NCBI GenBank assembly: GCA_963835575.1
Contig: CAWIGG010000002.1
Location: 640,001 to 704,000 of the forward strand
Direction of reading: 5' to 3'
Source of the DNA: an uncultured Spirochaetota bacterium
Lineage (GTDB): Bacteria; Spirochaetota; Brevinematia; Brevinematales; JAOACQ01
Length of the DNA: 64,000 nt
This document shows positions 22,046-43,089 of this stretch, one piece after another. The notes beneath the pieces were generated by a model. That model had not been told where the DNA came from. It made no database searches and saw nothing but the letters and a program-made list of their open reading frames with translations. The first letter of the stretch is position 1; every line of letters starts with the position of its first letter. Both the position numbers and the translations under genes were made by a program.

Positions 22046-22333
22046 ATGAAAGTTAAACCTTTAGGTAACAGAGTTTTGATCAAAGTGAAGGAAACAGAAG
22101 AGAAAACAAAGGGAGGAATTTTTATTCCCCAGACAGCCCAGGAAAAAACGCAGACCGGCGTCATCGAAGCTGTAGGCCCGGGTAAAAAGAACAACAAGGG
22201 CGAGTTGATCCCTCTTGAAGTTAAACCGAAAGACGAAATTATTTTTGATAAGTACGCCGGCACTCAGATTAAGATCGACACTGCCGATTTTCTGATTTTA
22301 TCAGCGGATGATATCCTGGCGATAATTTCTTAA
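22046..22333 (+). CDS. groES: Co-chaperonin GroES
   Basis: VKPLGNRVLIK, TKGGIFIP, AVGPG, KYAGT; upstream TTGACG-N17-TAAATT (21983-22011). Confidence 0.97.
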   Translation: MKVKPLGNRVLIKVKETEEKTKGGIFIPQTAQEKTQTGVIEAVGPGKKNNKGELIPLEVKPKDEIIFDKYAGTQIKIDTADFLILSADDILAIIS

Positions 22334-25294: not shown

Positions 25295-25427
25295 ATTTCC
25301 TCCTTATTATAGACGCGGCTTTATTAATCGTTATATTATTATAACAGGCATAAATTCTAAAGGACGATTGAAAAAAAATAAAATTTTCTTTTGGAAGGAA
25401 TTTGATCGGGTAACGGTTGGAGTCTAA

Positions 25428-25664
25428 TCAGCCACAGAATTTCACGGAAATTCACTGAAAGGGGATGATGGACTATTTTTATTCTGTGTTAATCTGTGTA
25501 ATTCAGTGGCTGAAATTTTTAAGGCGCTTTCCTTTTTTTTAACCCAAAAATAATTCTCAGCATCTTTTATTTTTCCTATAGCTTGTCCCTCGGCGGGTAC
25601 TTCGTGTCTTCCCTACTTTCTGTTAAACCTCACCCTTATTCGCGTGAATTCGCGGATTACCCGT
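25428..25664. repeat. Cluster of periodic inverted-repeat arms, including an uninterrupted homolog of the IS110 target (25600-25628)
   Basis: TCAGCCACAGAAT-TTCACGGAAA-TTCACTGAAA ... TTCTGTGTT-AATCTGTGTA-ATTCAGTGGCTGA; ATTCGCGTGAATTCGCGGATTACCC. Confidence 0.75.
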
Positions 25665-25756
25665 TCTTTTATCTCCAATTGACTTTTTCATCGTTTCCGT
25701 TTAATATTTATACCTCATTTTTCTTTGAAAAATAATTCGTCTAAAGGAGTTTTCCA

Positions 25757-26134
25757 TTGAAAATTGATTTTGAAAAAGGGGATGGTCTTGTCCCCGTCAT
25801 CACGCAGGACGTTAAAACGGGCGAAGTTCTGATGCTGGCTTATGCCAACAGGGAAGCCTTCGAATATACAATAAAAACCGGCAAGGCAACATACTGGTCG
25901 CGCTCGCGGAACAAGCTCTGGTGCAAGGGCGAGGAATCGGGGAATTACCAGGAGATCGTCGAAATTCTGATCGACTGCGATGAGGACACGCTCCTGTATA
26001 AAGTGAACCAGAAAGGCGGCGCCGCGTGCCACGAGGGTTATGAAAGCTGTTTTTTCAGGACCCTCCAAAAGGGCGAGTGGGTGAATAACGGCAAAGTCAG
26101 GGTATTTGACCCGAAAACGGTTTATAAAAAATAA
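25757..26134 (+). CDS. hisI: Phosphoribosyl-AMP cyclohydrolase
   Basis: [27 protein letters not shown]. Confidence 0.96.
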
Positions 26135-26146
26135 TAAGGATTGTTT

Positions 26147-27025
26147 ATGAGTAATAAAGTATTGAAGCTTGGTATCCCGAAGGGAAGTCTGGAGGAAGCG
26201 ACGCTCGCGATGTTCAAGAAGGCGGGCTACAACATCAACCTCAGTTCGCGCTCGTACTACCCATGGGTGGACGACGAGGAGCTTTCTCTACTGATGATCC
26301 GGGCGCAGGAAATGGCCCGCTATGTCGAGGAAGGCGTCCTTGACGCCGGCATCACCGGCAGGGACTGGGTCGAGGAAAACCATGCCGATGTCACGGCCGT
26401 TTCGACATTGAATTACTCCAAGTCGAGCAGGAAGCCCGTGCGCTGGGTGCTGGCCGTGCCGCAGGATTCCGGCTTAAAGTCCGTCAAGGACCTTGAAGGA
26501 AAGCGCATCGCTACGGAAGCCGTCGAGATGACGAAAAAGTACCTCGCTAAGAACGGCGTCAAGGCGCTGGTGGAATTCAGCTGGGGCGCGACGGAAGTGA
26601 AATGCCCGACGCTGGCGGACGCCATCGTGGAGATCACGGAAACGGGCTCGAGCCTCCGCGCGAATAACCTCGTCATCATCGACGAAGTGATGGTTTCGAC
26701 CACACAGCTCATTGTCAATAAGAATTCATGGAAAGACGCCTGGAAAAAGGATAAAATAGAAAAGATCAACCTGCTCCTGCAGGCCGTCCTTTCGGCGGAA
26801 AGCAAAGTCGGGCTGATGCTGAACGTGTCGAAGAAAAACCTTGACGCCGTTCTGAAGATCCTGCCGGCGCTCCAGAAGCCGACGGTAAGCCCCCTCACGG
26901 ACAACGAATGGGTGGCGCTCAACACGATCATCGACGAGAAGATCGTACGGGACATCGTGCCTGAGCTGAAGAGGCTCGGCGCATCGGGGATTGTCGAGTA
27001 TCCTTTGAATAAAATTATAGACTAA
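26147..27025 (+). CDS. hisG: ATP phosphoribosyltransferase, long form
   Basis: [38 protein letters not shown]-terminal regulatory domain. Confidence 0.96.
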
Positions 27026-27033
27026 TATAAACC

Positions 27034-27583
27034 ATTCTTTATTGTAATATCCGATTGTTCACGCGGATTACACTGATGACACGGATTTTCGCAGATACAC
27101 GGATTAAATTCACGCAAAGGCGCAAAGATCGCAAAGAATCAGATTATATACGTCTCCCCAAATATTTTAACCGCCCAAGACACCAAGGACACTAAGATTC
27201 ACCAACTTTGGGTTTTATTGTTAATGTCTTTTATTTCTTCTTTAGCCTTTGTGTTCTTCAATTCTTTTATTTAAATCCCGGGTAATTCCAGTATAATAAC
27301 TGCCGTCACAGCATTCAAGAATATACATATATGACATAAAATCCCCCTTCCCCCCGTTCTCCGCGTCCTCAGCGTCTCAGCGGCAAATAAACACTTCTAC
27401 TAACCAACTATCTTTTATAATAAATAAATCCTCATAAATCTGTCTTAATCTGTGAAAATCAGTGTGAACAATCGGATATTATGAAAAAGAATCCTTTTAT
27501 AAAATCCTTAATCGTATAAAAGCTTCAGTATTAAATTACCGTTATCCCCATTCTTTGTGTTTTTGCCCCTGCGCCTCCGTGAT
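27034..27583. repeat. Nested periodic inverted-repeat cluster
   Basis: 18-bp perfect IR TAATATCCGATTGTTCAC (27045-27062) / 27464-27481, enclosing CACGCAAAG-, CACCAAG- and CTCAGCGT-type tandem units. Confidence 0.8.
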
Positions 27584-27586
27584 GAT

Positions 27587-28489
27587 TCATTTCCTTAACC
27601 TCACAAACCCCGCCCTCACACGGCCGCGGTATCTTCCACTCCTCACGATCCCCGGAATAAAATACACTTCTTCCGATTTTAGTTTTTTAGAGTCTTCTTT
27701 AATAAACAATTTATTCAGCAGCCAGTAGAAGAGGAAGAAATAGACAAACGGCATGATCACAAATAATAGAATAACGGTGATGAAATAATTGATCGCCAGT
27801 TCCAGCAGCTTCAGGATGGACTCGCCGACAAACGTCTGGGCTTTGGTGAAGGCCTCAACGATAAAATTCTTTACTTTATTGAAAGTCTTGATCAGGAACT
27901 CGGCGATGATTGTCAGGAAACTTTTCTGCTTGATATCCTGGTCGGTTTTGACAGGCGCCGGATTCTGCGCGTTTTTATCGCTGGATTTTTGATTGACAGG
28001 TTCCTTCTGAATATTTTCGATATGCGCCTTGATGAGGGTCCCATTTTCAAGCTGGGCGGCCTGTGTAAAATAATTCGTGATATGGACGGACAGGGACAAT
28101 CCCGGATTGATGAAGAGGAGGAGGATCAAAAGCTTGACCGCCCATTTTTTTGTCTTTTCAAAAAGGGTCAAAGCCCATGTGCCGACAAGAAGAAGCTTTA
28201 TTAATAAAAGCTGACTGATCTTCAGAAGGATAAGCTGAAATAGGAGAACGCCGTTGATGATCACGAAAAAGTTGAATATTTTATCGACGATCTCGGCGGA
28301 ACCTTTGAGCAGGGGCACACCGCCTATCAGGATTTTAAGTCCTGTTACAAGCGAGAGGTTTGTTAAAGCGAGCGTTGATGAATTGCTGAGAAAGAGAAGC
28401 GCGCCCTGGTAAAAGACATCAAAGAGAGCAAAAAGGACTAAAATAAGACAGACCACGGACTGCCAGTTTTTTAAAAGAAACTTCTTCAT
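27587..28489 (-). CDS. Hypothetical multi-pass membrane protein
   Basis: 300-aa ORF with GGAG RBS and several hydrophobic helices. Confidence 0.7.
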   Translation of the reverse strand: MKKFLLKNWQSVVCLILVLFALFDVFYQGALLFLSNSSTLALTNLSLVTGLKILIGGVPLLKGSAEIVDKIFNFFVIINGVLLFQLILLKISQLLLIKLLLVGTWALTLFEKTKKWAVKLLILLLFINPGLSLSVHITNYFTQAAQLENGTLIKAHIENIQKEPVNQKSSDKNAQNPAPVKTDQDIKQKSFLTIIAEFLIKTFNKVKNFIVEAFTKAQTFVGESILKLLELAINYFITVILLFVIMPFVYFFLFYWLLNKLFIKEDSKKLKSEEVYFIPGIVRSGRYRGRVRAGFVRLRK

Positions 28490-28544
28490 AATTATACTCC
28501 ATCATAATTAATCATTCCTATTTATCGGAAAAACTCCTATATTT

Positions 28545-28849
28545 AAACACCAAGACTCCAAAATCACCAAGAATCACCAAGGAAATTTAATCCATTTCAT
28601 TGCTCATCTTGACAGTCACTTGCTTAATCCTGTTTGTGTATCTTTGTGTTCTTGACATCTTGATGCTTCAATACATTATTATAAAATGTCGAAAGCCTAA
28701 TAATAGGGAAGTGTAAATTAATCAGACACCTTAAATACATCCTGTTCTCTGTGCTCTCCTTTTTCTCAGTAATCTCTGTGTTTTTCAATAAAAGGATAAG
28801 TATTATTATCATTATGATGACCATTTCCCGGTTCTTCGTGCCTTCCCGT
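28545..28849. repeat. Periodic repeat arms left of the IS110 element
   Basis: AAACACCAAGACTCCAAAATCACCAAGAATCACCAAGG; CTTTGTGTTCTTGACATCTTGATG; TTCTCTGTG..CTCTGTG; CTTCGTGCCTTCCCGT. Confidence 0.7.
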
Positions 28850-28864
28850 CTTGTAAGCTATATT

Positions 28865-29077
28865 TTGGAGAAAAAGTTTACAAAAAATAATTCTTCAGTA
28901 GAATACCTCCTTGTGGAAGTTGTTGCTCACTACCCGCCTGCCTTCTGGTTTGAAACCAAGGCACACAGGAAGATTGCCAACTCCACAAGGACCGTTTTGG
29001 TCTCTTAAAACAATTGCCAGGATATTCCCTTGAATAATCCTGTCGCTCATTACAAGGGTGCCGAAATGGAACGGTCT
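28865..29077 (+). ncRNA. Putative IS110 bridge RNA (5' stem-loop, target-binding loop, donor-binding loop)
   Basis: Stems TCCTTGTGG/CCACAAGGA and GACCGTT/AACGGTC; loop segments match or complement the element ends and flanks; RNA ends approximate. Confidence 0.8.
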
Positions 29078-29103
29078 GATATTTTAATCTGCTGGAGGAA
29101 AAA

Positions 29104-30378
29104 ATGCTAATCCGGGATGCTATCGGGATTGATCCCGATTCACAACAGTATGTGTGTATGTATGTCAAAGCGGAAGACTGGAAAACGGAACGGAAAGCCT
29201 TTCCGGTTACCACAAGCGGCCTTGATAATCTGATCGAATGGACTCGGTCGAAAAATGACCCGATTATCGCCATCGAGGGAAGCAACGGGCAGAGTAAGCC
29301 CTTAGAGAAAGTGCTTCGTAAGGAATCGATGACCTATTACTCGTTTAAAGCAAGGGATGTTGAACAAAAGAGGAAAAGCCAGCTCCCGGCGGGAAAGAAC
29401 AACGAAAAGGATGCTCATGCCGCCGCTCTTTTGGCTTTAGAGCGTGAAATGAACGGTTCTCTGGAAAAATGGAGAAGGGTCTATCCTGTTGACAGCGAAT
29501 TACAGACGATAACCCGGAAATATGAAAGTGTAAGCGGCAGGATCACAGAGGAAATATCCGGGCTGTGGAAGCTTTTATGCGAGGCTTCCCCGGATGTTTA
29601 CCTGTTCTTAAGCGGCAAGAATATGGAGACGGATAACAGACGTAATGTTTTGAATAGCGCAGGAGTACTGAATTTGCTGTGTAATTGTCCCGATTTAAGC
29701 CAATGGAGGAGATTAAGCGCGGAGAAAATGAAAGAGCTGATGGGTGGAGGCTCTTATAGAGGCCGGGATAAGACCATCGCCGGCTTACAGGTAATAGCCC
29801 AAAGAATCTTGGGTGTAGCGGGCCCCATTTCCATGATGATCCGGCAATCTGCTGAAAATATTATTCTTTTGAAAGGCCATAAGGAAGAAATGAAGAAGAT
29901 TTTGGATAATCTGGCTGAATCCAGGGAAGCTGTCCGGGTTTTAGCCTATGACGAATCCAATGGCAATGGGTTGAAAGGAATCGGCGTGATCACTGCCTCT
30001 ACGATGATAGCCGAGATTATTCATATCAATCGTTTTGTTAAAGAGGACAGCCTGGCGTTATATGCGGGATTCGGTATGGTGGAAGATGAAACCGGAAAGA
30101 AAAATAGGGGTGAAAGAAAGAAGATGAAACATACTCACGATTATAACCGCCGTTTGAAAAACGCCTTTATGAACGCGGCCAAGAACTTTGTTCACTGGAA
30201 TCCGGACCACCATATTTCCGGCATGCACAGGAATTTGATAAAAAATGGAATGAGCAGGCTCGAAGCGAATAAAAGGGTTGCCAGAGCATTAGTCCGTAAG
30301 ATATTTCGGATATTAAAGGACTATGAGTCTGAAAATATAAGGAAAATGGAAGAAAACGGGGTGGCAAAAGTGGGTTAG
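29104..30378 (+). CDS. IS110-family recombinase/transposase
   Basis: IGID, AIEG, KNNEKDA (RuvC DEDD domain); KGIGVITASTMIAEI..RF..LALYAGF..ETG (Tnp20 domain). Confidence 0.92.
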   Translation: MLIRDAIGIDPDSQQYVCMYVKAEDWKTERKAFPVTTSGLDNLIEWTRSKNDPIIAIEGSNGQSKPLEKVLRKESMTYYSFKARDVEQKRKSQLPAGKNNEKDAHAAALLALEREMNGSLEKWRRVYPVDSELQTITRKYESVSGRITEEISGLWKLLCEASPDVYLFLSGKNMETDNRRNVLNSAGVLNLLCNCPDLSQWRRLSAEKMKELMGGGSYRGRDKTIAGLQVIAQRILGVAGPISMMIRQSAENIILLKGHKEEMKKILDNLAESREAVRVLAYDESNGNGLKGIGVITASTMIAEIIHINRFVKEDSLALYAGFGMVEDETGKKNRGERKKMKHTHDYNRRLKNAFMNAAKNFVHWNPDHHISGMHRNLIKNGMSRLEANKRVARALVRKIFRILKDYESENIRKMEENGVAKVG

Positions 30379-30498
30379 AAACCCTGCGGAAATATTCCGC
30401 GAGCAACACCTCCATTTTCTTCCGCCTTTATTATATCGAACTACTGAGGTTTTTTAAATATTTTGATTGTTTTTTTCTTGACTTAACTAAAACAATCT

Positions 30499-30591
30499 TC
30501 CTGTTGAACTAAACCCCGTTTCTCTATTCGCGTCCATTCGCGGGTAACCTCGTTTGCGCCCCTTGGTGCTCTTAGTGTTTTTGTGGTTAAA
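30499..30591. repeat. Periodic repeat right arms flanking the IS110 element
   Basis: ATTCGCGTCCATTCGCGGGTAACC; CCTTGGTGCTCTTAGTGTTTTTGTGGTTAAA. Confidence 0.7.
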
Positions 30592-30601
30592 TTAAAGTAC
30601 C

Positions 30602-32473
30602 TCAATCTTTATTCATTTCATAGATCTCATTAAAAAGGTAGGAATTGGCGAGGAAGATTTTCAAAAGCTCCGGGTCAAAATGGGCGGGATTGACCCTGTC
30701 ATCGCCATGGGAGATGATATCGACGGCTTTTTCATGAGAGAGCTCGTATTTGTAAGGTCTGGCGCTGCGGAGCGCGTCATAGATATCGGCGAAAGCCATG
30801 ATCCGCCCGGGGAGCGGTATAAGCTTGCCCTTCAGGCGCTCCGGGTAGCCGCTTCCGTCCCATTTTTCATGGTGATAAAGCGCGATCTGCCGGGCCGTCA
30901 TCAGCACGAGCGAACCGGCGCCGTCAAATATTTTTCCGCCGATAACAGTGTGTTTTTCCATGATTTTCCATTCTTTTTGAGAAAGCCGCCCTTTTTTAAA
31001 GAGGATCCTGTCGGGAATTCCGACCTTGCCGACGTCATGCATGGGGGCCGCGAAATAGAGGTTTTCAACTTCTTCACCTGAAAGTCCCATTTTTTCGGCT
31101 AAAAGCTTGACGTAAAGGCTCACTCTCTTGATATGGGCTCCAGTTTCCGGGTCCCTCAGCTCGGCGATAATGGCCATACGGTTGATCGCTTCGAGATAGG
31201 CGAAATCGACCTTACGGAAGGCATTGTCTCTTTCCCACAAAGTCTTTTCCAGATCTGCTTTTTTTATTTCTATTTCCCTGTAAAGGCGGGTGAATTTATT
31301 TGACAGAACAAAAGAAGTGCTCAATATGAAGATCAGAAAGCCGTATGGGGAAAACGGCGCCAGCGCGTTCAGCAGCGGGGATGTGATGACATTCTTTGAA
31401 ATAATAATGTCCATGATAACAGTCAGGATCATGAAAATCATGGGATAGAGCATGACCAGAGCGTCTTTATTTTTTCTGCGTTCTCTAAGCAGAATGATAA
31501 ATATTGAAATAATAGGAATAGTCCAGCTGTATTGGTAAATATTGATATTCAGGAAATCCCATAAAGCCGGTTCGCTACTGATCAGCGCCGTAATAATACA
31601 GCCCGCCGAAACGGCGTAAAAAATGTAATGAAGAATGTTCCTTTTTTGATTAAAATGCCGCAGGATGAACTCGAAAAATAAAGGGACAACGGTAAATAAA
31701 CAGATGTATTCAATTCTTTTCAGGAGCATAAAATCCTGTATTATGAAATACTTCACTTCCGAATGCATGAAAAAATAGATTGAGAAGAACAGGCAGAAGA
31801 GGCCGAAAAATAAATTATCGGAGCCTTTTTCAATCCTGACATAGAACAGTAAAAAATAAAGGCCGAAAACTATGATGACAATAGTGAGAAAAGTTTTAAT
31901 ATATTCGGTTAAAAAATAATGATGCGTAATTTTTTGATATGGGGCGATCATGATAAGCCCGTTTATCAATCCGGCTTCATAGGAAAAATATCCTTTCACC
32001 CGTATTGAAAAAACATTGTCCTTTCCGGGCTTGATTAATTGTGAGGGGATTTCGTAGATACGGATTTTGTCATAGGCATGGCTTTTATTGTTCTCAAATG
32101 ATCCTTCTTTGCCGATAAGGATGCCGTTGAAGTAGGTTTCATCAATATCAGAGATCATGCCCAGGTTTATTCCCAAAGATCTTTCCGGAATCTCATTCGG
32201 GAACTGAACATGAATTCTGTACCAGCAGGTCCCGTTCCAGCCTGGAAAAGCCGTCTCCTGCCATTTAGACGGCACATACACTCTTTTCCACAGACTGTCG
32301 TTATAAGCGGGTTTTTTGTATTCGGGAGAATCCCCTTTCTCTATCAAAACTATATTGCTGTTATTCATTATTACCGTATTCTGGTAGTTAGAGAGGACAA
32401 AATAAGACGTATTTCCAGACAGAAAAGTCCTGCAAAAAAATAAAAAAAGAAATAAAGATATAAAACGCTTCAA
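30602..32473 (-). CDS. HD-GYP cyclic-dinucleotide phosphodiesterase with sugar-binding extracellular domain and 7TM region
   Basis: GH2-N-like WKRVYVPSKW..GTCWYR..DETYFNG; about 7 TM; ETGAHIKRV, MHDVGK, HHEKWDGSGYP, DIYDALRSARPYK. Confidence 0.92.
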   Translation of the reverse strand: MKRFISLFLFLFFCRTFLSGNTSYFVLSNYQNTVIMNNSNIVLIEKGDSPEYKKPAYNDSLWKRVYVPSKWQETAFPGWNGTCWYRIHVQFPNEIPERSLGINLGMISDIDETYFNGILIGKEGSFENNKSHAYDKIRIYEIPSQLIKPGKDNVFSIRVKGYFSYEAGLINGLIMIAPYQKITHHYFLTEYIKTFLTIVIIVFGLYFLLFYVRIEKGSDNLFFGLFCLFFSIYFFMHSEVKYFIIQDFMLLKRIEYICLFTVVPLFFEFILRHFNQKRNILHYIFYAVSAGCIITALISSEPALWDFLNINIYQYSWTIPIISIFIILLRERRKNKDALVMLYPMIFMILTVIMDIIISKNVITSPLLNALAPFSPYGFLIFILSTSFVLSNKFTRLYREIEIKKADLEKTLWERDNAFRKVDFAYLEAINRMAIIAELRDPETGAHIKRVSLYVKLLAEKMGLSGEEVENLYFAAPMHDVGKVGIPDRILFKKGRLSQKEWKIMEKHTVIGGKIFDGAGSLVLMTARQIALYHHEKWDGSGYPERLKGKLIPLPGRIMAFADIYDALRSARPYKYELSHEKAVDIISHGDDRVNPAHFDPELLKIFLANSYLFNEIYEMNKD

Positions 32474-33677: not shown

Positions 33678-35846
33678 ATGAATATATATTCCCTGCTTTC
33701 ATTTCTGGCCTTTATTATAAATATTCAAATGGCATATTATGTTTATAAGCTGAATCCCAGATCAAAATTAAACACTTCTTTTTTATTTTCTTCTTTTACC
33801 AACGCGCTGATTGATCTGGCCTTTGTTTTTTACTATTCGGCGGAAAGTAAAGAATTGGCCCGGTTATGGTATTTGATCTCTTCCGTCTGCTGGTTCCCTC
33901 TTTCTTCCATAGCGCTCCATTTTATAATCAGATTGACCCTGCGTCAGAAAAATATTTCACGCTGGCTGTTTGCCCTTATATACCTGCCTGGAGTCGTATT
34001 TGTTATCAAAGCTTTATTCAAGATGTTTTTTGCAGAGGATTTTATTTTTAATTACGGGTCATGGCATACGGTCCTTTATACAAGTTCGCCATGGTTCTGG
34101 ATCTATATCATTTATATTACTGTGGTTATTACAACAGGCCTGATTTTATTGATATACTGGAAAAACACGACAGGAGTGGAGCTTGAAAAAAAACAGGCGG
34201 ACACTATTATTAAAACCTCAAGTGTTGTTTTCCCGGCGATACTATTGACAAATGTGATACTCCCTTATTTGAAAATTTATATCATACCTGAAACAGGGCA
34301 TATTTTATACCTGTTTTTTCTTATAGGGATAGTATATGCTATTGTACATTACAAGTTTATGGTGCCGTCTTTTGCGGAGGAAAATGTACTTGATATGCTG
34401 AGCGATTTGCTGATCATGGTGGACTTTAACGCGAAAATATTAAAAATAAATCAGGCCGTGGAAAGATTGCTGGAATATAAGGAAAGTGAAATAATAGGGA
34501 AACCGATAGAAACAGTTATTGTTGAGTCGGATAAGATACATGAGGATATTAATAAAATAAAAGATGAAGTTCATTTTTCAAAACCTTATGAGCTTAATTA
34601 CCGCTCAAAAAAAGGCAGTATTATTCCGGTGACAATCTCCGGGTCTTTAATCAAGGATACGGAAGGGCACAACTTCGGCTGTGTTTTCATCGGGCATGAT
34701 TTAAGGCAGAATAAAGAGCTTCATCTGGAAACAGCCCGCCGTCTGCAGGCGGAAGAAAACGAAAAACGCTATACTCAGAAGATATTATTTTTATCAAAAG
34801 CGGCCTTTTCAATGATTGAGTTATCGCCGGAGGAAGATCTGTACAATTATATCGCCCAGAAGATTTATGAACTGGCGGGCGATTGTTTTGTTTTTGTCAG
34901 CAAGTTTCATCATGTTTACCAGGGCGCTCAGATAAGGGCTTTTACGGGAAGCCCTGAAAACATCTTAAAATTCAATAAAATTCTGGGAAGCACCCCCATA
35001 GGTCTTTTTTTTAAGCTTGATCAGGATCAAAAATCGCTTCTGGACAGCGGCAGGATCATCGAAATGCCGGCAGGCCTCTATAACATGTCGTCAGGAATGA
35101 TCCCCATAGATCTCTGTGAACAGCTGGAACACACTTTTCAATTAGGGAACAGGTACAGCATAGGTTTTGTAAAAAAAGGGGATTTTTTTGGGACCGCGGA
35201 AATCCTCATGTGCCAGAAATCGGCGCTGGAAAACCAGCTGGTAATTGAGACGTTTGTCCGTCAGGGAATTTTGGCCATTGCCAATAAAGAATCTGAAAGA
35301 AAAGAAATTCTTTCTTCAAAAAGTTTCCAATTTCTTCTGAATAGTTTGAAAGAATTGACTGAATCAGTAAAAATAGAAGAACTTTATGGAATTATTTCAG
35401 ACAGATTGCTTAATTTTGTTTTTGATTCTATGATATTAATTATACTTTATGATAAGAAAAAAGAAGTTATGCGGATTGATTCTATTAATGGAAATGAAAA
35501 ATACATACAGGCTTTGCATAAAATCCTAAAAAAAGATATTAACGGCTTAAAGATTAAAATGGATCAAAACAGCGTCCGGGAAATAATGGATGATGGTCTT
35601 GTCCATTTAAAGGGCGGGTTATTCGAACTGACAAATGCTATGATAACCCAGCATGAATCGGGTTTGGTGGAAAAAATGCTGGACCTCAGGAATGTTTATA
35701 GGATGGCTTTAAAAAAAAGCGGAAATTTAATCGGGCTGGTGGCGATTATGACAAGGAATTCCATCAATATCAATACCCGCCATGTGGTTGAGATATTTAT
35801 TCATCAGGCTTCTCTGTCTTTTTGTCTGCCAAAGAAAAAGCTGTAA
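33678..35846 (+). CDS. HisKA_7TM-type membrane sensor with PAS and two GAF-like domains, no output domain
   Basis: Seven TM helices; PAS (DLLIMVD..INQAVERLLEYKESEIIGKP..HDL); internal duplication. Confidence 0.75.
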   Translation: MNIYSLLSFLAFIINIQMAYYVYKLNPRSKLNTSFLFSSFTNALIDLAFVFYYSAESKELARLWYLISSVCWFPLSSIALHFIIRLTLRQKNISRWLFALIYLPGVVFVIKALFKMFFAEDFIFNYGSWHTVLYTSSPWFWIYIIYITVVITTGLILLIYWKNTTGVELEKKQADTIIKTSSVVFPAILLTNVILPYLKIYIIPETGHILYLFFLIGIVYAIVHYKFMVPSFAEENVLDMLSDLLIMVDFNAKILKINQAVERLLEYKESEIIGKPIETVIVESDKIHEDINKIKDEVHFSKPYELNYRSKKGSIIPVTISGSLIKDTEGHNFGCVFIGHDLRQNKELHLETARRLQAEENEKRYTQKILFLSKAAFSMIELSPEEDLYNYIAQKIYELAGDCFVFVSKFHHVYQGAQIRAFTGSPENILKFNKILGSTPIGLFFKLDQDQKSLLDSGRIIEMPAGLYNMSSGMIPIDLCEQLEHTFQLGNRYSIGFVKKGDFFGTAEILMCQKSALENQLVIETFVRQGILAIANKESERKEILSSKSFQFLLNSLKELTESVKIEELYGIISDRLLNFVFDSMILIILYDKKKEVMRIDSINGNEKYIQALHKILKKDINGLKIKMDQNSVREIMDDGLVHLKGGLFELTNAMITQHESGLVEKMLDLRNVYRMALKKSGNLIGLVAIMTRNSININTRHVVEIFIHQASLSFCLPKKKL

Positions 35847-36490: not shown

Positions 36491-38188
36491 ATGATTGAAA
36501 AGGAATTTAAATGGAACCTGGATAAGCTTTTTGATATTAATTTTTTGATAAATAACCTCTCTGACAGGCTTAATAACAAAATAGAATTTAATGAGGCTGC
36601 AGAAAAAGAATATCAAGACCGGTATTATGACACAAAACAGCTTGTGCTATATCTTTCCGGCTTCAGCTGCCGCGTCAGAACAACAGATAAGATATGTCTT
36701 GAAATAAAATTTCAGCCGAAAAAAACAAAAAATTCATTCTGGCAGAGGAATGAATGGTTAATTGATAAGAAGGCTATAAAAGAAAAATTTGTATACCGGT
36801 TTGAAGAAAAAAAGGTCAGGGATTTCTTTTTAGAAGAGTTTAATTATCTTATTCCCGGGAAACTGGCTCCGGTTTTAATCATAAAAAGCGATAGAAAAAA
36901 ATATGAGATAAAATACAAAAGCATTCTTGCCGAACTGTCATTCGACAAGTCCGCGGCTTCTTTATTAATTCCTTTCAATTCTAGCAAAAAAAAAGGAAAT
37001 TATCATTTTAATGAACTGGAACTTGAACTTTTAAGAGGAAAAGATGCCTCGGATAAAGATTTTATCGAACTGGGAGAAATTATTTCTGAAATTACAGGAT
37101 TGGAAAACTCTTTAAAGAATAAACTGGAAAAAGCGCTGACATATTTTAATCTGAATTTAAAAAAATTTCCGCGGTTTGAATTAAATAATAATGAAATGAC
37201 CTCTCAAGCGGTAAAAAAAATCATTTCTTATTATTTAAAAACAGCGGAACAGAATAAATACGGCGTGGAAATAGGTCTGGACAGCGAGTATGTGCATGAT
37301 ATGCGCGTCGCTATACGGAAAATCAGGACAGCCCTCCCCATTTTCCGCTATACAATGACGCTGGATGGTTTTATGTATTTAAGGAACAATTTCAAGTGGA
37401 TCGCGGATTCCCTGGGCAAAGTCAGGGATATTGATGTGTTTTCCGACAAAATAATAGATATGATACCTTCCGTCATCCGTGAAAGAAACGCCGATTTGCT
37501 GGAAATTATTGAAAAGGAGATTTTAAAATTACATGAAGAGAACCATATAAAAATGCTGAATTGCCTTAATTCATACCGTTATAAGCATTTTATTTATAAA
37601 CTGAAAGATATGCTCGCTCATAACTTTCTGCGGTCCGATTTTCAAAGTATTGCCCGCCTTCCCATAAAAACCGTCATGAATGAAAATTTAATGAAATTCT
37701 ATAGAGATGTTTTTAAATACTCCAAACGTTTTTTTCAGAATTCCGGCAGTATGAAAGATACGGCGATTCATAAATTGCGGATCCGTTTTAAAAGATTGCG
37801 GTATTCATTGGAATTTTTTTCATCTTTATTAACTGATAAAACAAAAAAAATAGCGCAATTTCTTCCATTGATACAGGATGCGCTGGGAAATTATGTGGAT
37901 ACTTTTTTTATAGCTGAGCTGATAGCAGAGCTGGCGGACCGCATCGGAAAAATAGATCCGGCAAGAAACAGCCTGTTTATTCTCAATGGAATATCAGCAG
38001 CTATTACCGGCTTAAAAAATAATCTTAAACGGCAAATATTCAGTGAGCTGAAAAAGATAATGGAATCCCGGGAACTGATGGATTTTCAAGAAGAAATTAG
38101 TATTAATGTCAGTTCTAAAAATAAGGTATTTGGAACGGCCGATAAAAATCCTTTACCATATAATTTTGATATTGAAAAGAATAAATAA
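36491..38188 (+). CDS. CYTH + CHAD domain protein (triphosphate/polyphosphate metabolism)
   Basis: EKEFK, DRYYDT, ELELE (CYTH); VHDMRVAIRKIR, LGKVRDIDV, HKLRIRFKRLRY, QDALG (CHAD). Confidence 0.9.
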   Translation: MIEKEFKWNLDKLFDINFLINNLSDRLNNKIEFNEAAEKEYQDRYYDTKQLVLYLSGFSCRVRTTDKICLEIKFQPKKTKNSFWQRNEWLIDKKAIKEKFVYRFEEKKVRDFFLEEFNYLIPGKLAPVLIIKSDRKKYEIKYKSILAELSFDKSAASLLIPFNSSKKKGNYHFNELELELLRGKDASDKDFIELGEIISEITGLENSLKNKLEKALTYFNLNLKKFPRFELNNNEMTSQAVKKIISYYLKTAEQNKYGVEIGLDSEYVHDMRVAIRKIRTALPIFRYTMTLDGFMYLRNNFKWIADSLGKVRDIDVFSDKIIDMIPSVIRERNADLLEIIEKEILKLHEENHIKMLNCLNSYRYKHFIYKLKDMLAHNFLRSDFQSIARLPIKTVMNENLMKFYRDVFKYSKRFFQNSGSMKDTAIHKLRIRFKRLRYSLEFFSSLLTDKTKKIAQFLPLIQDALGNYVDTFFIAELIAELADRIGKIDPARNSLFILNGISAAITGLKNNLKRQIFSELKKIMESRELMDFQEEISINVSSKNKVFGTADKNPLPYNFDIEKNK

Positions 38189-41121: not shown

Positions 41122-42750
41122 ATGGATTTTTCTCTAAAAAAATTACAGAATTTTTCCGGCAGGAAAGGCCCGCTGCTTCTTATTATCATGGACGGCATCG
41201 GGATCGGAAAAGAGTATCCCGGTAATGCCGTTTACCTGGCTAAAAAGCCGGTTCTCGATAAGCTTTTTAAAAGTTCTCTTTATACAACGCTTCGGGCCCA
41301 TGGAAAAGCTGTCGGTCTGCCGACGGATGAGGATATGGGCAACAGTGAAGTAGGTCATAACGCTCTTGGGGCAGGCAGGGTCTTTGCCCAGGGAGCTTTA
41401 AGAGTGAATCTGGCAATTAAGGACGGCAGTATATTTAAGAGTGAAACCTGGAAAAGCCTGATCTCGCGCTGCAGGAGTAAAAAAAGCTCATTGCATTTTA
41501 TCGGTTTATTATCGGACGGCAATGTCCATTCGCATATTGACCAGTTGTTTGCGATGATCTCTGAAGCTGCCAAAGAAGGGATAGTATCTTTGTGCGTTCA
41601 TCCTCTTCTGGATGGGAGAGACGTCCCTGAAAAATCATCGTTGACCTATGTGGACAAATTGGAAGAATTTCTGCGGAAGATCCGGAATGATACCGGTTTT
41701 GATTACAGGATAGCCTCAGGCGGCGGAAGAATGGTCACGACAATGGACCGCTATTTTGCCGATTGGAGCGTTGTGAAAAGGGGGTGGGAAGCGCATGTCC
41801 TGGGTATTGGCAGGCAGTTTTCCTCCGCCCGGCAGGCTATTGAAACTTATTATCAGGAGGACCCGAAAATAACCGATCAGTACCTGCCGTCTTTTGTCAT
41901 TGCTGAGAACGGCAGGCCTGTGGGTACAATAAATGACGGCGACAGCGTTGTGTTTTTTAATTTCCGCGGGGACAGGGCCATAGAAATTACAATGGCCTTT
42001 GAGAATGATGATTTTAAGGGTTTTGACCGGCAGAAGAGACCCGATGTATTCTACGCCGGTATGATGGAATATGACGGCGACCTGCATCTGCCTAAAAACT
42101 TTCTCGTTTTCCCGCCTGAAATTGACAGAACGGTCGGCGAATATCTCTGCGCTCAAAATATCACATCCTTCGCGATTTCAGAAACGCAGAAATTCGGGCA
42201 TGTCACCTATTTCTGGAATGGTAATAAATCCGGCTATATTAATGATAAGCTGGAAAAATACCTTGAAATTCCCTCCGACAGGGTCCAGTTTGATAAAACT
42301 CCCAGAATGAAGGCGCCGGAAATAACTCAAAAAACAATTGAACTGCTTCAATCTGGAAAATATAAATTCGGCAGGCTGAATTTCGCTAACGGCGATATGG
42401 TGGGGCATACGGGAATATTGGAAGCCGCTATTGTCGCCGTGGAAACTGTGGATGAATGCGTCGGCAAACTCATAGAAACTGTGAATAGACTCGGAGGAAT
42501 TACCCTTGTGACTGCGGATCATGGCAATTCCGACGAGATGTTTGTTGAGAAAAATGGGGTCAGGGAAGTCAAAACGGCGCATACATTGAACCCTGTACCT
42601 TTTATTATCGTCGATTCGGGATTTAATAATGAATACAGAATGGCGGATCTTCCTCAAAAAGGATTGGCCAATGTGGCGGCGACAATCTGCAACCTTCTGG
42701 GATATGAGAAACCGGAAGGATACGAGCCTTCTTTGATAGAGTTTAATTGA
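41122..42750 (+). CDS. gpmI: 2,3-bisphosphoglycerate-independent phosphoglycerate mutase
   Basis: IIMDG, MGNSEVGH, DGNVHSH, NFRGDR, ETQKFGHVT, DMVGH, TADHGN; upstream TTGAAA-N17-TAAAAT. Confidence 0.97.
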   Translation: MDFSLKKLQNFSGRKGPLLLIIMDGIGIGKEYPGNAVYLAKKPVLDKLFKSSLYTTLRAHGKAVGLPTDEDMGNSEVGHNALGAGRVFAQGALRVNLAIKDGSIFKSETWKSLISRCRSKKSSLHFIGLLSDGNVHSHIDQLFAMISEAAKEGIVSLCVHPLLDGRDVPEKSSLTYVDKLEEFLRKIRNDTGFDYRIASGGGRMVTTMDRYFADWSVVKRGWEAHVLGIGRQFSSARQAIETYYQEDPKITDQYLPSFVIAENGRPVGTINDGDSVVFFNFRGDRAIEITMAFENDDFKGFDRQKRPDVFYAGMMEYDGDLHLPKNFLVFPPEIDRTVGEYLCAQNITSFAISETQKFGHVTYFWNGNKSGYINDKLEKYLEIPSDRVQFDKTPRMKAPEITQKTIELLQSGKYKFGRLNFANGDMVGHTGILEAAIVAVETVDECVGKLIETVNRLGGITLVTADHGNSDEMFVEKNGVREVKTAHTLNPVPFIIVDSGFNNEYRMADLPQKGLANVAATICNLLGYEKPEGYEPSLIEFN

Positions 42751-42765
42751 TAGAAAAAGCCGATA

Positions 42766-43089
42766 TTAATTACCGACCAGCTTTTTTAATGTGTCTTTTT
42801 GTTCCTGCGTGGCGTTAATAAAGTAGACGCCGACCCGGCATGTTTCTTCATAAATGACTTTACAGTCTAATTTCATGTCCCCTATGATAACCTGTATGAT
42901 CATCCCTTTTTTAATTCCGCCTTTGGGTCTTCCTCTCATTTCTTTATCCGCTTCCGCCAGAAAGCCGAAACCCTTTTCACTGACATCCTCAATGGTGCAG
43001 GGATATTCTTCATCAGAGCCTGGTTCGACAATATATTTTCCGACAATATCGGAATTGATCCTCTGCGCTTCTCTATTCTCCTGCGGCAT
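42766..43089 (-). CDS. Stand-alone PilZ domain protein
   Basis: RxxxR (REAQR) and DxSxxG (DVSEKG) motifs. Confidence 0.85.
   Translation of the reverse strand: MPQENREAQRINSDIVGKYIVEPGSDEEYPCTIEDVSEKGFGFLAEADKEMRGRPKGGIKKGMIIQVIIGDMKLDCKVIYEETCRVGVYFINATQEQKDTLKKLVGN

Follow-up and report, generated by a model that had tools for sequence, protein, structure and literature searches.

The interval between hisG (26141-27025) and a 7TM-DISM/HD-domain (HD-GYP) gene (30602-32473, minus strand) of an uncultured Spirochaetota bacterium carries two stacks of oriented repeat arms (27045-27580 and 28540-30593), which, judging from the DNA sequence, are likely to be decayed, gene-less composite members of an element system that combines such arms with a gene for a predicted nuclease of the GxxExxY family. 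Positions refer to the window, the whole stretch of 64,000 nucleotides that was analysed (G000:C2:640001-704000, where G000 is the source genome, 4.39 Mb and 94% complete). Genome-wide, the arms are on balance probably the stacked, gene-less ends of a small selfish element whose complete form has a GxxExxY gene between its arms, the predicted nuclease likely driving its spread and leaving its loop accessible to new genes, and the IS110-family insertion sequence (IS) within the second stack a separate, arm-guided element; our confidence in this reading is moderate. The initial annotation had described the same DNA as structure-defined recombination or cassette sites acting as insertion hot spots. 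That interpretation is partly supported: the arms, their constant architecture under varying word sequence (which holds across subfamilies) and their association with accessory genes were recovered, and the definition by structure and the general hot spot were not.

The arms are polar arrays of 7-nt words at a pitch of 8-10 nt, falling into about 12 subfamilies for which we use our own labels A to K, with C split into C1 and C2. A typical member has 2-5 words of the type C(A/G)CN(A/G)A(G/T/A) and is paired inward with a second arm. A three-word pattern located 185 left and 190 right arms (375) in the whole genome, compared with 1-6 in three shuffles, and position-weight matrices for the 12 subfamilies, trained on the source genome itself and used with a threshold of 22 where stated, found 603 arms compared with 2 in shuffled DNA. 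This catalogue is a lower bound, because a further word type, CAGGAT (G000:C2:1245900-1245990), escapes the matrices. The genome-wide search for tandem words with an inverted partner, as proposed in the initial annotation, therefore yields about 600 arms, far above shuffled DNA, arranged in cognate inward pairs: 150 of 202 left-then-right neighbours within 700 nt belong to matching subfamilies (C1 pairing with C2), and only 21 neighbours stand in outward order. Nearly all arms (565/603) are intergenic, occupying 306 of the 1,813 gaps of at least 100 nt, with 92 of 290 convergent, 175 of 1,058 tandem and 39 of 465 divergent gaps affected. For the outermost arms, the median distance is 40 nt from a preceding stop codon (n=278) and 112 nt to a following start codon (n=183).

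The two arms of one copy are less alike than arms permuted between copies in families A, B, C and F (e.g., 496 vs 536 for A), which points to two polar end types with fixed mismatches; these mismatches fall mainly in the linkers between words. Same-copy identity was neutral in J and E and slightly above that of permuted pairs in G (p = 0.085, n=6). Copy-specific hairpin covariation was accordingly rejected, and the sites do not appear to be defined by structure. No target-site duplication was detected at lengths of 4-8 nt among 147 pairs, whose exact ends are uncertain: the 4- to 8-mers shared by their flanks matched permuted pairs (89 vs 88, 39 vs 33, 13 vs 10, 2 vs 2.6 and 1 vs 0.7, respectively).

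The association with GxxExxY genes, which the initial annotation had mentioned for similar arms elsewhere, was found at every gene examined (22/22). All nine PF13366/TIGR04256 (GxxExxY) genes of the source genome have an arm within 330 nt, eight of them within an inward pair, with arms of subfamilies F, C (three genes), B, A (two), J and H; among relatives, at least one arm was present at 13 of 13 genes and both arms at 11 of 13. The words flanking these 22 genes include the G, J, H and C words of the present locus. A tree of the 22 proteins has its deepest split (98/97) between genes flanked by T/A-ending words and those flanked by G-ending words, an agreement that consists of one split and is no test of co-evolution. 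Furthermore, at least seven gene-less A loops retain fragments of the A-type gene or of its leader. The structure model of the protein (pLDDT 91) gave as best matches Cas4 SSO0001 (E 1e-4), lambda exonuclease and Hjc, and residues D71, E81 and K83 are invariant across 118 homologues. The protein is thus predicted to be a Cas4/RecB-like PD-(D/E)XK nuclease, and the fold together with these conserved residues suggests that it could cut or bind its cognate arm. GxxExxY/PF13366 is a large family, with 1,205 matches in one search; PF13366 appears among families of unknown function in the list consulted (PMC3424549), and no link between GxxExxY and repeats or cargo was found in the open-licence literature. 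Across 31 genomes the link between the gene, present in 11, and the arm pattern is loose: five of the eight relatives with at least four pattern matches carry the gene, and 17 of the 20 genomes without it show at most one match.

Within the interval, the repeat words quoted in the initial annotation are present at every position named. The 18-bp inverted repeat (27045-27062 and 27464-27481) is perfect, and the arm at 30561-92 mirrors those at 28541 and 27166 at 24 and 20 of 32 positions, respectively. The 1,024 nt of non-coding, non-IS DNA hold 10 two-word arrays; 2,000 shuffles gave 0.13 on average and never more than 2. The first stack (27025-27600) folds with z = -3.8, equalled by none of 100 shuffles, and the second (28536-30600, with the IS removed in silico) folds at chance level (10/60 shuffles equal). 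Four of the right arms are degenerate: those at 27238, 27551, 28633 and 28745 score 0-14 against the threshold of 22. That at 27437-81 also scores low (2.3), with the arms at 27437-81 and 27551 supported by alignment with eight homologous composites. The right arm noted at about 28825 is the left half of an arm interrupted by the IS110 element. No Rfam match (E <= 1) was obtained across window positions 25300-30700.

The arms are also nested more often than expected. Gaps with at least two arm families number 69, compared with 34 under random and 45 under length-weighted placement (maxima 50 and 64), and those with at least three number 23, compared with 1.9 and 4.7. The outside-to-inside order G, C1, J, B, D is kept, and J-C1-G at 30497-30593 follows this usual order. 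Alignments of stacks with dozens of loci extend over 200-450 nt at 61-80% and take in the linkers; the H-D-E block at 27355-27580 recurs at a minimum of eight other loci, again with its linkers (68-84% identity over 155-260 nt). The recurrence of order together with homologous linkers indicates that composites are copied as units. At C4:995665-997619, four concentric arm layers surround a single DUF2971 gene. GTAG-containing REP-like words (GGCTACGCC, 40 copies; REP, repetitive extragenic palindromic) form one composite layer at G000:C4:995870-996100 and in other stacks.

The initial annotation had also proposed that the arms bound accessory genes, and elsewhere in the genome inward pairs do enclose genes with low GC content at third codon positions (GC3). 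After removal of multicopy genes, GC3 was below 0.38 in 14 of 15 genes between inward arms, or 9 of 10 excluding GxxExxY genes, compared with 0 of 24 between outward arms (p = 2e-7 for 9/10 vs 0/24) and 2 of 18 where both arms point the same way; genome-wide, about 20% of genes fall below this value. With IS and GxxExxY genes included, spans shorter than 2.5 kb gave 17 of 23 inward and 0 of 45 outward, and foreign-looking genes are almost confined to the inner side of arms (51/154 vs 9/434). Five of 17 enclosed or adjacent proteins match PADLOC models, namely two kinases, DUF2971, Ymh and DUF5343; the other scanned proteins include an SDH protease, a cupin, PIN and HEPN. A similar bias was seen in G002, a species of the same genus, where inner genes have a median GC3 of 0.24 (n=24) and outer genes 0.51 (n=28), in a set of 17 loci picked around arm or GxxExxY matches in which doubly flanked genes count twice and the inner genes still include two unflagged GxxExxY genes.

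Cargo turnover between relatives, which the initial annotation had anticipated, is evident between these two species. Of 18 G002 sites mapped to the source genome, seven hold arms there too, five of these with another arm family and with other or no cargo (p = 0.02 against 17%). Eleven G002 element sites have both flanks syntenic in the source genome, where five are filled and six empty (gaps of 15-115 nt), and in G002 a single cargo family recurs in three separate A elements. A neighbour search for the C4:996164 slot in relatives matched paralogues only. One gap, at 42747-42775 of the window, is empty (28 nt) in the source genome and holds a complete GxxExxY element in G002 (L110).

Several observations weigh against the reading of the arms as ends of a GxxExxY-bracketing element. 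At least six subfamilies, namely D, E, G, I and K together with degenerate types, have no cognate gene in the 94%-complete genome, and D brackets more cargo than any other subfamily. A nuclease of 134 aa would be unable to join DNA by itself. Three of the eight relatives with at least four pattern matches lack the gene (G001, G008 and G025), and five relatives that possess it show at most three matches. The test of stack order, in which one direction prevailed by 48 to 7 and spacings were tight, covered the seven most frequent family pairs, picked after the table had been viewed. Outer and inner arms show no age gradient (p = 0.9), so that neither outer-younger nor inner-younger nesting is upheld. 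The GC3 bias of the cargo is absent in the more distant G022 (15 loci, p = 0.32) and weak in G017 (5 loci, p = 0.018, 6 vs 6). Homologues of the cargo family found in three A elements stand without arms in G001 and G004 (0/2). Finally, the copies are diverged, with no recent burst, and the element boundaries are approximate, no near-identical filled and empty pair being available.

A mechanism compatible with an element bracketing a GxxExxY gene can be proposed. Each GxxExxY variant would recognise a particular word array, binding one word every 8-10 bp, and nick or cut at or beside it. Host repair or recombination would then either place copies of the DNA between the arms at further AT-rich positions, with no target duplication, or allow foreign DNA and other arm elements to settle in the loop. 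Nested composites would spread as units and decay by deletion, leaving half-stacks such as those at 27045-27580 and 28540-30593. A wider version of this scheme, which we put forward tentatively and think rather doubtful as a whole, is a recombinase-free route of gene capture, in which tiny Cas4-like nucleases, each specific for one word array, keep hundreds of chromosomal slots open for the entry and exchange of foreign, defence-type genes, composite ends arise by nesting, and at least two IS110 lineages parasitise the system with guides re-aimed among arm types.

The cargo could also be explained if the arms were gene-exchange slots kept by the host, at which incoming DNA with similar arms swaps cargo, with an integron-like outcome but no integrase, and GxxExxY acts as a domesticated gatekeeper, comparable to Ssn/NTS in Neisseria. 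The defence-type contents (kinases with matches to MADS6/PD-T4-6 models, DUF2971 (PDC-S31), Ymh with DUF5343, AAA/AbiEii and a methylase fragment), the different contents of one slot in two species and the repeated cargo family in G002 are in line with this, as is a -10-like box inside 24 of 64 A arms and 27 of 72 B arms compared with 5 of 75 C2 arms (counts with no shuffle control). We nevertheless consider it unlikely: about 130 of 165 arm pairs enclose less than 300 nt, slots common to both species mostly differ in arm family, which would not be expected from arm-to-arm homology, and the armless cargo homologues and the lack of bias in G022 count against it as well. Alternatively, self-moving arm elements might merely create AT-rich loops behind stop codons in which foreign DNA finds a harmless refuge. 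The position of the arms close behind stops, their frequency in convergent compared with divergent gaps, and the ordinary IS256, IS481 or IS1380-like copies held in several arm loops would all follow from such a passive sink, which is quite improbable given that foreign-looking genes lie nearly all on the inner side of arms and that ordinary IS families are not enriched near them. Their counts (7/33, 1/24, 1/22, 4/18 and 1/12) compare with a background of 565/3290 genes, so the arms do not act as a general insertion hot spot. A threshold of 22 was used for counts where stated because one IS family, apparently near D arms in 10 of 10 copies, proved to be a false positive caused by the element's own end (score 20).

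The insertion of the IS110 element into an arm is explained by its own guide. It shows the features of its family, with DEDD_Tnp_IS110 and Transposase_20 domains, a CT core and a guide-bearing non-coding RNA. All six genomic copies (99-100% identity) lie at the same CT of a J arm, the six rebuilt targets scoring 31-47 as J, and 17 empty 16-nt target sites are present in the genome. The left end folds into two loops carrying CTACCCGCCT and ACAGGAAG as target guides and AAAACAAT and TTACAAG as donor guides, and the predicted bridge-RNA guides spell arm subfamily J. Comparison with four relatives revealed target guides that change with the flanks and constant donor guides; among homologues with a readable left end, guides match flanks in 5/5 and arms in 3/5. 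Relatives L031 and L056, which lie in arms, have guides for H-type words, those of L060 and L054 point elsewhere, and a partial, diverged copy terminates with an H-type word. At 80% identity, the closest relative has an unrelated, repeat-like target (L060:690-720), which shows how quickly the predicted guides of such elements may be re-aimed. The recombinase has D10, E58 and D103, with T330 aligned to the IS621 nucleophile S241 and N100 likely at the position of IS621 D102, although the register is ambiguous in a weak alignment. Six near-identical copies, despite these apparently non-canonical residues, argue for recent activity. A second IS110 lineage lies in H words in both of its copies (G000:C2:474500-475895 and C5:6900-8292). 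Two IS110 copies (with inserts at G000:C2:1643158-1644833 and C5:162932-164607) carry a 1,676-bp element, present in 24 copies, inserted at the same base, equivalent to window position 29091, between bridge RNA and recombinase gene.

It is very unlikely that the mobility of the arms is supplied in trans by a different enzyme, such as an IS110 recombinase, a RAYT or an IS91-type relaxase, with GxxExxY as the commonest cargo. The arm-addressing IS110 guides, the GTAG-containing REP-like words inside stacks and two partial PF01797 matches in the genome would agree with this; however, IS110 uses arms as insertion sites without bounding them, its closest relative has a non-arm target, no full-length match to RAYT (PF01797) was found in the source genome, and the word type follows the GxxExxY tree.

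The same IS110 features have been described for IS621 and ISPpu10, which possess DEDD and Tnp domains, a CT core and, at the left end, a two-loop non-coding RNA with four guides, and which insert into a host repeat (PMC11208160, PMC11208158, bioRxiv 10.64898/2026.03.19.712850). Unlike these, the present element targets a word-array arm and not REP, has a right target guide of 8 nt and, compared with IS621, carries Thr for the nucleophile Ser and likely Asn for D102. It is a guided IS of known kind; the nuclease-arm system bracketing foreign genes is barely described. In design, Ssn/NTS and REPIN/RAYT come nearest, yet both fail as a match because the enzyme differs. Ssn/NTS/SRM (PMC11893778) resembles the present system in that oriented repeats belonging to a small, single-domain nuclease flank its gene, and in having hundreds of gene-less copies as well as clusters next to accessory genes. 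There, the nuclease has a GIY-YIG fold and the repeats are 20-50-nt hairpins, in contrast to the PD-(D/E)XK Cas4/RecB-like fold and tandem word arrays here, where about 12 subfamilies occur within one genome and inward pairs enclose foreign genes. REP/REPIN/BIME-RAYT systems share an intergenic location mostly downstream of genes, opposite pairing, clustered mosaics and a cognate enzyme gene, sometimes flanked by terminal inverted repeats (PMC3733652), and serve as IS110 targets. The arms described here differ as direct-repeat arrays and not palindromes, with fixed end mismatches, no HUH enzyme, and loops of 20 nt to several kb that hold cargo.

Integron attC arrays are similarly AT-rich, often carry defence-type accessory genes and have structured, sequence-variable sites. 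The arms, however, form inverted brackets around a gene instead of direct repeats between cassettes, as the counts of foreign-looking genes between inverted (14/15) and same-direction arms (2/18) illustrate, and they are dispersed over about 300 intergenic regions with no IntI seen. An integron was not supported: the two of 23 PF00589 matches that were typed, the tyrosine recombinases adjoining cargo, are XerD and XerC and score 164 and 143 against an integron-integrase cut-off of 265. Each of xerD and xerC has an arm-enclosed foreign gene directly 3' (L092, G000:C2:1244954-1250848, and L093, C4:112495-115075), the xerD stop lying inside a C1 arm. Miniature inverted-repeat transposable elements (MITEs) and mobile insertion cassettes occur in autonomous, empty and passenger-carrying forms that share ends, as here, but the present system shows no target duplication, DDE transposase or exact terminal inverted repeat.

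A parallel in sequence was found in Geobacter metallireducens, whose class 2 'predicted global regulator binding sites', read as IHF/HU sites, consist of three tandem TCTCCGTS[Y] repeats in opposite-strand pairs at variable distance, corresponding to the H-type word (PMC2700814). Some of these overlap another class, and a GRCGTAGC..GCTACGCC palindrome described in the same paper resembles the GTAG-containing words (GGCTACGCC); the passages describing class 2 do not connect these sites with GxxExxY, cargo or mobility. Multicopy sequences have also been noted to co-locate non-randomly (PMC2996986). A role of the arms as host regulatory or RNA elements, be they global-regulator sites or 3' RNA stems of the REP type, and of the nuclease gene as a bystander, would accord with that annotation of paired three-word sites, with arms behind stop codons and with the good fold of the first stack, but is highly improbable given the lack of copy-specific complementarity, the sites filled, empty or family-switched between species of one genus, the arms at every GxxExxY gene examined, and the functionally unrelated host genes that flank them.

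The arms provide concrete candidate substrates for the PF13366/GxxExxY family, and the source genome offers six gene-arm types side by side. If loops actively take up genes, this would represent a route for accessory and defence genes needing no integrase or transposase. The IS110 element, with its apparently non-canonical active site, illustrates what may be natural bridge-RNA re-aiming between variants of a single repeat system. For the interval alone the result is modest, amounting to two decayed gene-less stacks and one guided IS, whose coordinates are given in Table 1.

Table 1. Features of the hisG to HD-GYP interval and of the neighbouring stack (window positions).
Feature	Position	Strand	Evidence or remark
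Neighbouring stack of this arm system, located upstream of hisI (a B pair followed by right arms of J and C1)	25425-25662	.	
Left arm, subfamily D (CACGCGGAT words)	27045-27105	+	Score 49; begins 20 nt past hisG stop
Left arm, subfamily E (CGCAAAG words)	27105-27140	+	Score 50
Left arm, subfamily G (CACCAAG words)	27164-27205	+	Score 24
Degenerate right arm, possibly partner of the G arm	27238-27262	-	Matrix score 1.7 (sub-threshold); paired in predicted fold
Right arm, subfamily H; inner layer of H-D-E composite	27355-27390	-	Matrices and alignment
Right arm, subfamily D	27437-27497	-	Sequence and composite alignment
Degenerate right arm, subfamily E; outer layer of H-D-E composite	27551-27580	-	Alignment with homologous composites
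Gene for 300-aa membrane protein of no known family; between both stacks, outside both	27587-28489	-	
Left arm, subfamily G; outer bracket of second stack	28540-28583	+	Score 32
Two degenerate right arms (28633-28672, 28745-28786)	28633-28786	-	Scores 14 and 0
Left half of subfamily J right arm up to CT core (IS110 target)	28834-28851	-	
IS110 element with a CT core at each end (28850-51 and 30497-98)	28850-30498	+	6 genome copies, 99-100% identity
Predicted bridge RNA	28905-29075	+	Fold z = -4.8; alignment with 4 relatives
Bridge RNA target guides; donor guides	28930-39, 28965-72; 29007-14, 29050-56	+	Predicted
IS110 recombinase (PF01548 and PF02371)	29104-30378	+	
Right half of split J arm	30497-30504	-	
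Right arm, subfamily C1/I (CGCGAAT words)	30515-30550	-	Score 21
Right arm, subfamily G; outer bracket	30558-30593	-	Score 30; ends 9 nt from HD-GYP gene stop

The membrane protein gene had been placed among the arms in the initial annotation, and a role as cargo was rejected: it lies outside the brackets, between the two stacks, faces outward arms and has a host-like GC3 of 0.57. It gave no match in Pfam or NCBIfam and no convincing match in the Atlas, and was not found in 30 relatives. Pieces of it occur in the public sequencing run X2 at 86-92% identity, as do pieces of hisG and the HD gene, with adjacency of the three not established, so that a sister species appears to share the gene. Comparison of the hisG to HD-GYP interval with relatives, as the initial annotation had suggested, showed that it differs from those of G001-G004: in G001, G002 and G004 the gene after hisG is homologous to that at 33678, and in G003 to that at 36491, each time with no arms. 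These relatives, at 80% HisG identity, are too distant for the change to be dated, and four public sequencing runs yielded no contig across the interval. A single joint skipping 27197-30562, considered as an empty site, was dismissed because of a side of 21 nt and foreign letters between.

Outside the source genome, the D arm had one match in 300 other genomes. Words of types A and D occur in 15 viral contigs, 14 of which were examined; none was flagged for a GxxExxY motif, and cargo showed no clear pattern. One 126-kb viral contig (L140, L151 and L154) has back-to-back arm pairs about every 950 nt and same-direction arms recurring between short genes. A sequence of ~215 nt with 95-99% identity is present in loops of four arm families (A, B, J and F; G000:C5:148070, C5:431966, C2:1549781 and C6:334841) and is possibly a recent MITE preferring loops. 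Elsewhere in the window, positions 22046-22333 carry a putative groES-like gene, named from its motifs, with no groEL adjoining it in the list of open reading frames.

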